Sequence record: ON645936.1
Length of the DNA: 64,000 nt
Source of the DNA: Escherichia phage N2
Reading direction: 5' to 3' (one strand)
The number at the start of each line of letters is the position of its first letter. Position 1 is the stretch's first letter. Under the pieces are notes generated by a model, which ran no database searches, was not told where the DNA came from, and was given only the letters and a program-made list of their open reading frames with translations. This document shows, one piece after another, positions 45,033 through 50,699 of this stretch. The position numbers and the translations under genes were made by a program.

Positions 45033-47297
45033 TCATAATTTACAGGATGAACAATCTTCAGCTTTTGGAGTTTCTATTTCGTAATCATCAGTACCGGAAC
45101 CGTCGCGGGTATTATGATAATAGAAATTTTTTCCGCCAAAATACCAAAAATACAAAAGGTCATCAATCATTATTGACATTGGAACCTTTCCTTTTGGAAA
45201 AATCTGCGGGTCATAATATGTATTCGCTGAAGCTGATTGACATACCCATTTCAACATAATAGCTACTTGCGTAAGATAAGGTTTATTACCTTTCTTAGCT
45301 AATTTCCACGTATAATCATAGAGGTCTATGTTATGCTCAATATTGGGCACGACTTGATTAAAGGAACCCTCTTTTGATTCTTTAACAGAGACTGGTCCAC
45401 GTGGAGGCTCGATACCGTTTGTACTGTTAGAAACTTGGGAAGATGACTCACATGGCATAAGTGCTGATAATGTGCTATTACGGATGCCAAAGAGCTTAAG
45501 GTCTTCCCGCAGCGACGACCAGTCACAAACGTATTTTGGAGCTGCGATTTGGTCAATCTTTTTATTGTACCAGTCGATAGGTAATTCGCCTCGAGACCAA
45601 CGAGTGTCTGAATAATATTCGCAAGGTCCTTTTTCTTTGGCGAGCTTAATGGATGCTTTAATGAGTCCATACTGTAATCTCTCAAATAGTTCATGTGTTA
45701 AATCGTTAGCATCTTCATAAGAAGCAAAGTTACTTGCCAGCCAAGCTGCATAGTTAGTAACACCTACACCGAGGTTACGACGCTTTTTAGCTTTTTCTGC
45801 TTCAGGAACTGGATATCCTTGGTAATCCAAAAGATTATCAAGAGCACGAACTTGAACTTCTGCCAATTCATTAATTTTATCTTGGTCTTGCCAATCGAAG
45901 TTATCTAATACAAATGCGCTAAGGGTACACAATCCAATTTCAGCATCAGGACTATTCACATCATTTGTTGGAATAGCAATTTCACAGCACAAGTTACTCT
46001 GACGAATAGGTGCCTTTTCACGAATAAACGGAGTATAGTTATTCGTATTATCAATGAACTGCACATAAATCCTTGCTGTTCCTGAACGTTCAGTCATGAG
46101 CAATTCAAATAGTTCACGGGCTTTAATACGCTTTTTGCGAATATTAGGGTCTTTTTCTGCGGCTTCATACAATTCACGGAAACGGTCTTGGTCTTTAAAA
46201 TAAGAATAATAAAGCTCGCCACCCATTTCGTGTGGACTGAACAAAGTAATGTAGTCGTTCTTTCCAAAACGTTCCATCATCAAATCATTCAGTTGAACGC
46301 CATAATCCATATGACGGATACGGTTTTCTTCTACGCCTTTGTTATTTTTCAAAACGAGAAGATTTTCAACTTCCAAATGCCAAATAGGATAATAAGCAGT
46401 AGCAGCGCCGCCACGAATTCCGCCTTGTGAACATGATTTAACAGCAGTCTGAAAATGTTTCCAAAAAGGAATAACGCCAGTATGACGCACTTCACCTGTG
46501 CCAATCTTAGAACCTTCGGCACGAATCATACCAACGTTAATACCAATTCCAGCGCGTTTGGAGATATATTCAACAATTGAAGCAGAAGCCTTATTGATAG
46601 ACTTCAGCGAATCACCTGCTTCAATAACAACGCATGAACTAAACTGTCGAGTTGGAGTACGACAACCAGCCATAATAGGAGTTGGCAATGAAATCTGTCG
46701 AGTAGATACTGCTTCATAAAAACGGATAACGTGTTTTAATCTATCAACAGGTTCATCTTGATGCAATGCCATTCCAATAGTCATAAATGCAAACTGTGGA
46801 GTTTCATAAATTTGACCAGTGGTTTTATCTTTAACGAGATATTTTTCTTTTAATTGCATCGCCCCGGAATAAGTAAATTCCATATCCCGCTCGTGCTTAA
46901 TTTTTGATTCTAAAAATGTAATTTCTTCTGCTGAATATTTTGACAATAATTCAGGGTCATATTTACCTTCATTTACACAGTAAGAAATATGGTCAATAAA
47001 TGAACGGGGCTCATACTGTCCGTACACGTGTTTACGAAGAGCAAACATTAAACAGCGTGCAGCTACGTATTGATAATCAGGCTCTTCAACTGAAATAGAA
47101 TTCGCAGCAGCCTTAATTACAATGGTTTGAATGTCATCAGTGGTCATTCCATCACGGAGATATGATTTAATATTTTCATATAATTCATAAGGATCTACTG
47201 ATGTTCCTTCAGCTGCCCAAGATAAAACTTTAATAATTTTTTGTGGGTCAAAGCTCTGAGAAACACCACTACTTTTGATAACATTAATTAATTGCAT
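45033..47297 (-). CDS. nrdA: ribonucleotide reductase large subunit
   Basis: 754-aa ORF from MQLINVIKSSG with GAGGA SD; the 29-codon upstream extension in the track is rejected. Confidence 0.95.
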   Translation of the reverse strand: MQLINVIKSSGVSQSFDPQKIIKVLSWAAEGTSVDPYELYENIKSYLRDGMTTDDIQTIVIKAAANSISVEEPDYQYVAARCLMFALRKHVYGQYEPRSFIDHISYCVNEGKYDPELLSKYSAEEITFLESKIKHERDMEFTYSGAMQLKEKYLVKDKTTGQIYETPQFAFMTIGMALHQDEPVDRLKHVIRFYEAVSTRQISLPTPIMAGCRTPTRQFSSCVVIEAGDSLKSINKASASIVEYISKRAGIGINVGMIRAEGSKIGTGEVRHTGVIPFWKHFQTAVKSCSQGGIRGGAATAYYPIWHLEVENLLVLKNNKGVEENRIRHMDYGVQLNDLMMERFGKNDYITLFSPHEMGGELYYSYFKDQDRFRELYEAAEKDPNIRKKRIKARELFELLMTERSGTARIYVQFIDNTNNYTPFIREKAPIRQSNLCCEIAIPTNDVNSPDAEIGLCTLSAFVLDNFDWQDQDKINELAEVQVRALDNLLDYQGYPVPEAEKAKKRRNLGVGVTNYAAWLASNFASYEDANDLTHELFERLQYGLIKASIKLAKEKGPCEYYSDTRWSRGELPIDWYNKKIDQIAAPKYVCDWSSLREDLKLFGIRNSTLSALMPCESSSQVSNSTNGIEPPRGPVSVKESKEGSFNQVVPNIEHNIDLYDYTWKLAKKGNKPYLTQVAIMLKWVCQSASANTYYDPQIFPKGKVPMSIMIDDLLYFWYFGGKNFYYHNTRDGSGTDDYEIETPKAEDCSSCKL

Positions 47298-47322
47298 AAG
47301 TCCTCTGTAGTAAGTTACCCCA

Positions 47323-47330
47323 TATAAATA
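47323..47330 (+). promoter_or_regulatory. late promoter TATAAATA driving the free-standing GIY-YIG endonuclease gene
   Basis: Exact octamer 23 nt upstream of ATG, followed by AGGAG SD. Confidence 0.7.
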
Positions 47331-47352
47331 TAATTTTATATAGGAGAATATA

Positions 47353-48084
47353 ATGAAATCTGGAATATATGCTATTATAAACACTAAAACTAATAAGCAC
47401 TATATAGGAAGTGCAATTAATTTTGAAGAACGATGGAAACGACACTTTAAAGATTTAGATAATGGAAATCATCATTCAATAAAGCTGCAGCGTTCTTATA
47501 ATAAGCATGGTAAAGATGCTTTCGTATGTAAAATCATAGAAGAACTTCCATACGAAAAATCTATCATTATTGAACGTGAAAATTATTGGATGCATGAATA
47601 TGACTCAAAGGAAAATGGGTATAATATAGCAGACGCATCGTTTGGGGATACCTTATCTCATCACCCAAGAAAGCAAGAAATCCTTAATAAAATTTCAAAT
47701 GCAATTAAAAATAATAATTCAAAATTATCACCAGAAGAACTTAAGCAAAAACATGGTAGACCTAGAGACATCAAAGGTAAAACTATAGAAGAACACTATG
47801 GGTTAGATCGTGCTATAGAAATAAGCAAAAAGTTCCAAGAAAGAAACGCTGCACTTAATATGAAAGGCATCAATAATCCATATTACGGACAGACGCATAC
47901 CAATGAAGTTAGAAAACGAATTTCTGACTCACAGAGAGGTAAAAAGAAACCCCATCTAAGAGTAAGTATAGATGGGGTAGAATATCCAACAATAGCAGAA
48001 GCTGTGCGTCAAACCGGAATAAGCAGAAAACTTATATCTAAAAGATGCGCTCTAGATTGCTGGGAATCATATTTATACTGCTAA
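47353..48084 (+). CDS. free-standing GIY-YIG homing endonuclease of the I-TevI family
   Basis: 243-aa ORF; N-terminal [46 protein letters not shown] closely parallels I-TevI catalytic domain; TATAAATA late promoter and AGGAG SD upstream. Confidence 0.85.
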
Positions 48085-48330
48085 AGTTCTACATTCGTCA
48101 TATTGTTTTTCCGTTAAAACAGTAATATCATAATAGCAATCAGAAGAAGTTTTAACTGTGGAAATTTTATTATCAAAATACTCACGAGTCATTTTATGAG
48201 TATAATATTTTTTGCCATAAATGATAATAGGCTGTTCTGGTCCTGGAACTTCTAACTCGCTTGGATTAGGAAGTGTAAAAAGAACGATACCAGAAGTATC
48301 TTTAAATCGTAAAATCATATATCCTCGCAA
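48073..48330 (-). CDS. hypothetical small protein downstream of td
   Basis: 85-aa ORF with GAGGA SD; 3' end overlaps the endonuclease ORF on opposite strand. Confidence 0.5.
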
Positions 48331-48341
48331 TTAAATTAAAA

Positions 48342-48653
48342 TTATACCGCCATTTTTCCTTTCAAGACACCGTGGGACTGATAATCTTTGAGAACGAAAT
48401 CTTTAGGCCTGAGTTTAAGAATGTATTCCAATTGTTCTTTAGTAGAAAGATAACGGAATTTATAAGGTAATCCGCCTATTACCAGTTCACAAAGCTCTTT
48501 AGATTCACGACGCAAAATTTCTTTACATTGTTCTACGTGATTCATATAGATATGAGTATTACCACCAGAAAATATCAAATCTCCTGGAATAAGATTACAC
48601 ATCTTAGCTACAATATGAACTAACGCAGCATATGATGCAATATTAAATGGAAG
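48342..48653 (-). CDS. td: thymidylate synthase, exon 2
   Basis: Encodes LPFNIASYA... ThyA C-terminal region; joins in frame to exon 1 after intron removal. Confidence 0.9.
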   Translation of the reverse strand, partial: LPFNIASYAALVHIVAKMCNLIPGDLIFSGGNTHIYMNHVEQCKEILRRESKELCELVIGGLPYKFRYLSTKEQLEYILKLRPKDFVLKDYQSHGVLKGKMAV

Positions 48654-48907
48654 CATTATGTTCAGATAAGGTCGTTAATCTTATCCCGGAATTATATCCA
48701 GCTGCATGTCACCATACAGATCAGACTATATCTCCATCTTGATGAAGCAAGATGTCTATCGTTTCGAGTCACTTGACCCTACTCCCCAAAGGGATAGTCG
48801 TTAGGCATTTAGTTCAAAAGAACATTTAGCACGGGATTGTCTACTAGAGAGGTTCCCCGTTTAGATAGATTACAAGTATAAGTCACCTTATACTCAGGCC
48901 TCAATTA
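48654..48907 (-). ncRNA. group I self-splicing intron in td, ORF-less (about 254 nt)
   Basis: Starts UAAUUGAGGCCUGAGUAUAAGGUGACUUAUACUUGUAAUCUAUCUAAACGGGGAACC after exon-1 ...CUUGGGU, ends ...CUGAACAUAAUG before exon 2, matching remembered T4 td intron ends. Confidence 0.85.
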
Positions 48908-49456
48908 ACCCAAGAACACGTCAACACTTCTTTGATACCACTGCAAATCCAAATAGCCATTACGCACATTAAACTGATAGAACATATGACAAGGCGGTAA
49001 TGCCATTTGCTTGAGTTCAGCTGGATTCCATGCAGAAACAACTTGACGTCTATCATTTGGCAGTTTTTTAATACGATCAATAACTTCTACAATTTGGTCT
49101 ACACCACCAAAATCACGCCACTGTTTTCCATAAATTGGACCAAGTTCACCACTATGATATCCTAAATCTTTTGCTTGATTTTCGTAATTTTCATCCCAGA
49201 CTGTTTTGCCTTGAATTAATGAATCGTGTTGAATTAATCGTAAATCATTGACATTTGTGCTTCCTGATAAAAACCAAAGTAGCTCAGCAATGCAAGCTTT
49301 CCAGGCGAGCTTCTTAGTTGTTACTGCAGGAAAACCTTTAGTTAAATCCCAGCGTAATTTAGTACCGAACAAAGCAATTGTTCCTGTGCCTGTTCGGTCA
49401 TCAGTTTCATAGCCATTTTCAAAAATGTCTTTAATTAAATCTTGGTATTGTTTCAT
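48908..49456 (-). CDS. td: thymidylate synthase, exon 1
   Basis: 183 codons ending ...QRSVDVFLG, followed by in-frame UAA at intron start. Confidence 0.9.
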
Positions 49457-49501
49457 TTAGTACCTTATATAAATTATAATACATTTTATGAAGCTAAATA
49501 A

Positions 49502-49864
49502 TCAATACGGTTTAGCATCAAATTTTCTTTCGATTTCAGGAGTGAAATATAATTCTTTACCACGTTTGGAAAAACGACCAATAATATGATAATTATTCTC
49601 ATCAAACGTGATATTGCCAATATCCATAGCTTTCAACCAAATATCGATATTTCTATCTAGTTTTATATCAAAATTCCAATACGGAGAACTATTACCGAAA
49701 ATACTGCAAGCGGATTCAGTGCAATAACTGCTGCTATAAATCTTGTCTTTGGGAACTACTAATTGATAGACGCCTTTAATAAACTGAGGACCCTGCCATT
49801 TTGGTTGTTTCGCGTCTTTTTCTAATAGAATAGGGTAATAATTAAAGTTCATATTTTCCGCCAC
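49502..49864 (-). CDS. hypothetical protein inserted between frd and td
   Basis: 120-aa ORF with no recognisable motifs. Confidence 0.6.
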   Translation of the reverse strand: MAENMNFNYYPILLEKDAKQPKWQGPQFIKGVYQLVVPKDKIYSSSYCTESACSIFGNSSPYWNFDIKLDRNIDIWLKAMDIGNITFDENNYHIIGRFSKRGKELYFTPEIERKFDAKPY

Positions 49865-49872
49865 GCGTTATT

Positions 49873-50699
<827 letters not shown>

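Follow-up and report, generated by a model that had tools for sequence, protein, structure and literature searches.

In phage T4, the dihydrofolate reductase gene frd (145109..145690 in NC_000866) and the thymidylate synthase gene td, which starts at 145112, share a 4-nt ATGA overlap, as the original prediction on this locus had stated. In other T-even phages the corresponding interval holds a gene that already carries the name td.1 in the GenBank records of T2H (AY262132) and T6 (AY262134), and that is listed at this position under the label "hypothetical protein" in T2, RB27, RB32, RB51, AR1, and other phages. The open reading frame (ORF) considered here, which lies in a 64,000-nucleotide stretch of Escherichia phage N2 (ON645936.1; hereafter the window), is the same gene, in the same position and strand and at 95-100% amino acid identity. 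Its presence between frd and td was confirmed at 49502-49864 on the minus strand, the strand having been omitted from the prediction, and T4 was found to be without td.1. Compared with T2, T6, and Sf22, the window version carries one extra codon (SSSYCTES vs. SSCFTES), and no other difference from known td.1 was found. Megablast recovered the whole frd-td.1-td segment from 355 phage records at ≥95% identity, and tblastn recovered the protein from ~362 records at ≥90% identity, including those of T2, RB27, RB32, RB51, and AR1. The gene is thus already catalogued, and the ORF itself adds no new element; what can be added concerns its family, its possible origin, and its possible role.

Layout of the junction

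Alignment of the window with T4 reveals 420 bp of extra sequence, bounded by perfect copies of the 9-bp direct repeat TAAATGAAA and containing td.1 and short spacers alone (Table 1). The window keeps the T4-type end of frd (VYK-TGA) and an ATGAAA in the same register as in the translationally coupled T4 pair. However, in the window that ATG opens only a 2-codon mini-ORF, and td begins 420 bp further on with its own Shine-Dalgarno (SD) sequence.

Table 1. Coordinates of features at the frd-td.1-td junction of the window
Feature	Position	Strand	Description
td.1 CDS	49502..49852	minus	116 aa (MNFNYY...) plus TGA stop at 49504-49502; PHROG 1928 family, type A
Longer reading of the td.1 ORF	49502..49864	minus	120 aa from GTG (ORF listing)
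Alternative GTG start and SD-like GGCGGA	49853..49864	minus	GTG 49864-49862; GGCGGA 49862-49857
frd (dihydrofolate reductase), upstream neighbor of td.1	49873..50454	minus	95% identical to T4 Frd
td exon 1 (thymidylate synthase), downstream neighbor of td.1	48905..49456	minus	97% identical to T4 Td exon 1; listed ORF extends a few bases into the intron
frd stop region	49868..49879	minus	TGA 49875-49873 overlapped by mini-ORF ATG AAA TAA (49876-49868)
Left copy of 9-bp repeat TAAATGAAA	49879-49871	minus	spans the frd stop codon
Right copy of 9-bp repeat TAAATGAAA	49451..49459	minus	spans the td start codon (ATG 49456-49454)
td.1-td spacer, 45 nt	49457..49501	minus	promoter-like element TTGATT..TATTAT/TATAAT; SD-like AAGG (49466-49463) for td

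Two starts are available to td.1. The ATG, which is the start annotated in relatives (HZ_ZJUN4, T2H), is preceded at a distance of 4 nt by GGCGGA, a weak SD-like sequence, while no SD-like sequence stands upstream of the GTG. The 116-aa reading is more likely than the 120-aa one. The GTG aligns with the ATG start of a metagenomic homolog (locus L019), and the leader between the two starts is homologous to the N-terminal extension of that protein (VAENMNFNYY in the window, MVKNVNFNYY in L019). On the other side of the gene, sigma-70-like hexamers and the AAGG before td are predicted in the spacer, and the record of phage Lutter has a predicted promoter annotated in the same interval. This spacer is unique in the window, not a repeated cassette, and its counterpart in phage OLB35 is shorter by 32 nt, at just 13 nt. 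A MotA-box middle-promoter pattern was considered for the spacer and set aside, as it is not enriched above chance in the window.

Family membership, coding evidence and neighboring homing elements

The protein matches PHROG 1928, a family of "unknown function," with an E-value of 1.3e-33 (residues 8-116 against profile positions 2-125 of 126), and a family profile built for the present work returns it at 4e-33 as the sole member within the window. The conserved motifs of the family, a QxKW loop, an (H/K)GxY strand, and a GRFxKxG...F hairpin, are all present (Q16, K18, W19, G27, Y29, G92, R93, F94, K96, G98, and F103), with W19, G92, K96, and G98 invariant across 48 family sequences. The family is restricted to T4-like phages, and every member maps between frd and td, on the strand of these genes, as td.1 does directly downstream of frd and upstream of td. 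It is also small, with just 45 clusters at 50% identity recovered by an exhaustive profile search of 1.84 billion proteins. The earlier statement that the ORF has no recognizable motifs stands as far as domain collections are concerned: Pfam returned zero families for td.1 at E-values up to 10 and none for the 48 family members, and no NCBIfam or PADLOC family was matched by td.1. Literature searches on td.1 or the frd-td junction yielded nothing relevant and no expression data. The long repeat proteins P0042, P0043, and P0052, which also matched the profile, consist of Ig-repeat or low-complexity sequence and were discarded as artifacts. Most database records label the td.1 homolog a "hypothetical protein," but two call it a "putative homing endonuclease" and one a "glucose-1-phosphate adenylyltransferase," and nothing in the analysis supports either of these functional labels.

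td.1 is a genuine protein-coding accessory gene of T-even phages. Pairwise comparison (Nei-Gojobori) of the window allele with those of T2, T2H, Sf22, HZ_ZJUN4, and OLB35 gave dN/dS ratios of 0.01-0.05 at dS values of up to ~1. Erratic codon usage, which had been named as speaking against the gene, was not seen; scored with a log-odds model trained on nrdA, td, frd, gene 32, and gene 59, the td.1 frame reaches +0.24 bits/codon, at the edge of the 0.24-0.48 range of known genes, while the other five frames score from -0.39 to -0.71. The gene is full length in ~360 records, the window protein is 100% identical to a cluster of 154 member sequences, and homologs extend down to ~30% identity with the invariant residues kept. 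A chance open frame in intergenic DNA could be argued from the weak SD sequence and the lack of a known domain, but it is practically excluded as an explanation: the dN/dS ratios and the codon bias of the coding frame already count as its refutation, and the distant homologs with their invariant residues and the confidently predicted fold (see below) oppose it as well.

Another reading, proposed in the original prediction, is that the ORF represents cargo or what is left of a homing event. A decayed piece of a free-standing endonuclease, such as its DNA-binding half, would be one example, and DNA brought in by I-TevI-driven co-conversion another. Its setting and the "putative homing endonuclease" label of the two records lend this reading some appeal, as the junction is ~550 bp from the td intron site and 1.4 kb from a free-standing I-TevI-like GIY-YIG gene. 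However, td.1 is not adjacent to any homing endonuclease gene, its nearest such elements being that GIY-YIG gene and the td intron, which is here without an ORF. Pfam searches found no GIY-YIG, HNH, or LAGLIDADG catalytic module and no NUMOD, IENR, or I-TevI-type DNA-binding module in td.1 or in the 48 family members (E-values up to 10 for td.1), whereas the GIY-YIG ORF, used as a positive control, matched GIY-YIG, NUMOD3, and I-TevI_DNA-bd. The structural matches of td.1 likewise include no nuclease. Moreover, the gene is full length and under strong purifying selection with no signs of decay, family members occupy the same place in phages that have no endonuclease nearby, and td.1 accompanies an intronless td in T2, an intron with I-TevI in RB3, and an ORF-less intron in the window, and is thus not tied to the intron. 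A homing origin is therefore very improbable, and the notion of a remnant in particular finds no support in an intact ORF, without a nuclease or NUMOD domain, whose family is native to the frd-td interval in many genera.

The mobile elements themselves deserve brief description. The free-standing ORF (47353-48084, plus strand), which combines GIY-YIG, NUMOD3, and I-TevI-type DNA-binding regions and is 46% identical to T4 I-TevI, lies antisense between nrdA and a DUF5496 gene (48073-48330); it is an I-TevI paralog outside an intron that lost its own ORF. That group I intron (48657-48917, minus strand; ~250 nt; Rfam RF00028, 72.6 bits) interrupts td without an endonuclease ORF, and in relatives such as RPN226 and RB3 I-TevI sits inside the td intron. 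The window region 47250-48950 finds a single-piece match in only one phage record (CJY920).

Junction alleles, tandem paralogs and the origin of td.1

Within Tequatrovirus the frd-td junction is a three-allele site, of which the textbook T4 overlap is the minority state. In counts of database records, duplicates included, td.1 is the commonest allele (~362 records), followed by an allele with a different ORF, x (~135 records), and the exact T4-type junction is the rarest, with ~35 Tequatrovirus records (T4, RB59, vB_EcoM_112, HY03, and others); the last also occurs in 24 Dhakavirus-like records. Comparison of frd-td junctions, which the original prediction had called for, thus upholds the T4 overlap and the absence of td.1 from it but not the description of the ORF as extra; framing the gene as extra relative to T4 is misleading, as T4 is the atypical one. 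The x allele came to light in a spread sample of frd/td matches, with ~587 bp between the matched ends. ORF x encodes 68 aa (PHROG 9550), is unrelated to td.1, and overlaps frd at its start (ATGA) and td at its stop (TAATG); examples are at 457-663 of L024 (phage Shinka), 5670-5879 of L018, 3173-3379 of L005 (phage CIP9), and 2201-2407 of L026. It is ~70-82% identical across genera whose Frd proteins are <50% identical, which is unusual conservation for a small protein and leaves a tree of so short a protein uninformative. One submitter labeled it DUF4858, for which Pfam gives no match. In Shigella phage SH7 an unannotated 203-nt frd-td gap (L025 1156-1358) holds a degraded x (residues 16-68, 79% identity).

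Beyond Tequatrovirus, homologs of td.1 at 30-48% identity directly follow frd in Kanagawavirus CIP9, Jiaodavirus KPN6, Gelderlandvirus Melville, Moonvirus Merlin, Marfavirus Potts1, and Edwardsiella phage PEi26, and family members do so at the metagenomic loci L011, L013, L018, L019, and L020. In most such phages this gene (type A) is followed by a second ORF of similar length that is its paralog (type B), with the same QKKW, HGxY, and GRFxKxG motifs and an insert of ~20 aa; A and B align in hhalign with 99.3% probability, and the type B proteins match PHROG 1928 at 1e-33 to 1e-40. The A-B tandem is found in Kanagawa-, Gelderland-, Moon-, and Marfavirus-like phages, and in the Kanagawa- and Marfavirus-like ones x then precedes td. 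In most genera the stop and start codons of family members overlap those of their neighbors, and such overlaps along the A-B-x block suggest co-translation. The phages with an A-B pair (for example CIP9, Melville, Merlin, and Potts1) share with the window the family, its motifs (QxKW, HGxY, and GRFxKxG), the interval, and the strand. However, they carry two copies, B with its insert, in genes that overlap their neighbors, together with x in the Kanagawa- and Marfavirus-like ones, whereas the window has A alone, preceded by a 20-nt leader and separated from td by a promoter-like spacer of 45 nt. No type B paralog was seen in any Tequatrovirus record, and A and x did not occur together in Tequatrovirus among the 60 junction spans sampled. 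The work thus defines a small phage-only family, with tandem paralogs fixed between two nucleotide-metabolism genes.

Several variants of the locus also occur. A profile scan of the fetched loci found no td.1 family member in T4, IME08, PhAPEC2, VR20, Acinetobacter phage 133, JSE, or Shinka. In Krischvirus JSE an 89-aa ORF between frd and td (L017 2476-2745) proved to be unrelated and not a PHROG 1928 member, and in Acinetobacter phage 133 (L016) the order is reversed, td preceding frd, and a homing endonuclease separates the two. The td.1 homolog of Klebsiella phage phi1_146043 (L022 2269-2611) is split over two frames by an apparent frameshift. A 195-aa database protein, P0014, ends in the last 38 residues of a Jiaodavirus td.1 homolog, its N-terminal part being unrelated and without a Pfam match.

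How td.1 came to reside in Tequatrovirus may be approached through trees and through the junction sequence. In bootstrapped neighbor-joining trees (8-11 taxa, short proteins), Frd groups CIP9 with L018 and L019 at 99% bootstrap, and Td groups CIP9 with L018 at 97%, the window lying outside both groups. The td.1 tree instead unites the window with L018 and L019 at 99% and excludes CIP9. In keeping with this, window td.1 is 62% identical to that of L018, an uncultured Kanagawavirus-like phage, and 62-66% to those of L018 and L019, while its Frd is merely 48% identical. The genera closest by Frd identity, Dhakavirus (83%), Gaprivervirus (63%), and Mosigvirus (58%), all have the ATGA overlap, with Frd ending VYK-stop. 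The stop/start context in the window, TATAAATGAAA, is that of the frd/td overlap in T4, Mosigvirus, and Gaprivervirus, the Dhakavirus version being TACAAATGAAA. Three features of the window junction resemble scars: the ATGAAA-TAA that overlaps the frd stop stands in the register of the td start of overlap-type phages; 7 nt past it, the leader TGGCGGAAAAT shows homology to the tail of frd and the N-terminal extension of td.1 in L018 and L019; and the td-proximal part of the spacer (GGTACTAA / GGTACTAAATG) resembles the 3' end of ORF x in relatives, a likeness that rests on ~10 nt.

Taken together, the conflict of the td.1 tree with those of Frd and Td, the overlap in the sister genera, and the scars favor lateral import of td.1 into Tequatrovirus from a Kanagawavirus-like phage, which on this comparative evidence is probable, if far from assured; of the suggestion that the ORF is cargo, lateral arrival is the part that finds support. 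The model proposes that the T-even ancestor would have had the frd/td overlap, as Dhaka-, Gapriver-, and Mosigvirus still do, and that a Tequatrovirus lineage may have imported td.1 through recombination within the conserved frd and td sequences on either side, possibly as a whole A-B-x block that was trimmed afterwards. The import would have left a vestigial ATGAAA start after frd and given td its own SD sequence and promoter-like spacer, and T4 would either have kept the older overlap or lost the insert again. If so, the junction would illustrate cleanly how T4-like genera exchange genes at a conserved site. Phage OLB35 (L021), labeled Mosigvirus, shows that the frd-td.1-td segment moves between coliphages, as its frd is Tequatrovirus-like and its td.1, set between different spacers, is 91% identical. 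In the same phage (L021 1440-1540, an UNVERIFIED record) an extra A in the frd tail removes the stop, and the Frd frame runs on for 11 codons across the td.1 leader into the td.1 start.

Counting against import is the age of the family in the same interval of outgroup genera. Vertical descent from a Tevenvirinae ancestor with a frd-A-B-(x)-td block, the overlaps of T4, Dhaka-, Gapriver-, and Mosigvirus being secondary deletions, is a less probable account that nevertheless carries appreciable weight. Such deletions could have arisen by slippage or illegitimate recombination between the TAAATGAAA copies, and the resulting junction possibly spread among co-infecting coliphages. At least six other genera carry the family in the same interval, recombination of the perfect 9-bp repeat flanking the 420-bp difference yields exactly the T4 junction, the three single-gene Tequatrovirus alleles look like differential loss from one block, and td.1 alleles are old within coliphages (dS ~1 vs. 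OLB35). However, this account meets a td.1 tree that is incongruent with Frd and Td at 97-99% bootstrap, requires three to four independent losses or a spreading junction, all yielding the same ATGA overlap, and sits poorly with a Tequatrovirus in which neither type B nor, among the 60 sampled spans, A plus x is seen. The repeat itself, examined as a target-site duplication, is present at both ends of the extra segment, but it is made from the frd stop and td start contexts and is equally a deletion substrate, fitting a microhomology deletion in T4 equally well; no mobility gene (transposase, integrase, or endonuclease) lies within the segment. A simple T4-specific deletion as the sole explanation was dropped, as Dhaka-, Gapriver-, and Mosigvirus share the overlap and the td.1 tree is incongruent.

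Predicted fold and possible roles of Td.1

Td.1 is a protein of ~13 kDa that is mildly basic, with a pI of 8.5 (family median 8.7) and a net charge of only ~+2. AlphaFold, supplied with the 48-sequence alignment, returned a confident model (pLDDT 92, pTM 0.84) with strands b1 (6-12), b2 (27-34), and b3 (63-65), a helix (69-77), and b4/b5 (81-83, 87-97, 100-105), and this b1-b2-b3-helix-b4-b5 succession is that of an OB fold in the order of its elements alone. Compared with OB-fold nucleic-acid-binding domains (SSB/RPA, HIN, S1, and the RecO N-terminal domain), the order of elements fits; however, no significant superposition of the model on known OB folds was obtained. A profile search of solved structures in the PDB gave noise only and no sequence link, and its best match, to TagH, fell from an E-value of 0.0017 to 0.11 with a deeper profile, lay inside an ABC ATPase domain, and was judged spurious. 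In the model the conserved residues map to the b1-b2 loop, the start of b2, and the b4-b5 hairpin, and in OB folds the b1-b2 loop, b2, and the b4-b5 hairpin border the ligand face.

It is tentatively suggested from this model that Td.1 could be a small binding protein with an OB-fold-like beta-barrel, co-produced with Frd and Td and serving the thymidylate/folate module as a dispensable accessory; its QxKW loop, (H/K)GxY strand, and GRFxKxG hairpin would form one ligand-binding face for single-stranded nucleic acid or a partner protein. However, T4-like genomes are broadly syntenic, so that adjacency to frd and td argues only weakly for a shared role, and T4 and three genera manage without td.1. 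A more ambitious version, in which Td.1 and type B would be a structurally novel OB-like pair that couples dihydrofolate reductase (DHFR) and thymidylate synthase (TS) physically or by regulation, perhaps as an adaptor in a dNTP-synthesis complex or an RNA-binding regulator of the frd-td operon, is decidedly improbable. That T4 lost or never gained the module would explain the absence of study, and should Td.1 prove to act on the DHFR/TS module, the lack of td.1 in T4 would account for this component having been missed.

Comparable in standing to the binding-protein suggestion, and likewise doubtful, is a role for Td.1 in host takeover or counter-defense, the frd-td position then being an accident of T4-like synteny. 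The gene is small, dispensable, patchy, and laterally exchanged, with several alleles at one site, a pattern typical of phage accessory and anti-defense genes, and the protein has no enzyme-like motifs. However, neither PADLOC nor the literature searches returned a link to a defense system, the stop/start overlaps with frd and td across distant genera suggest co-expression, and the tandem paralogs have been kept over long periods. A minor observation concerns the extra codon of the window allele: the SSSYCTES/SSCFTES length difference (window 49714-49731, residues ~40-46) falls in the single low-confidence loop of the Td.1 model.
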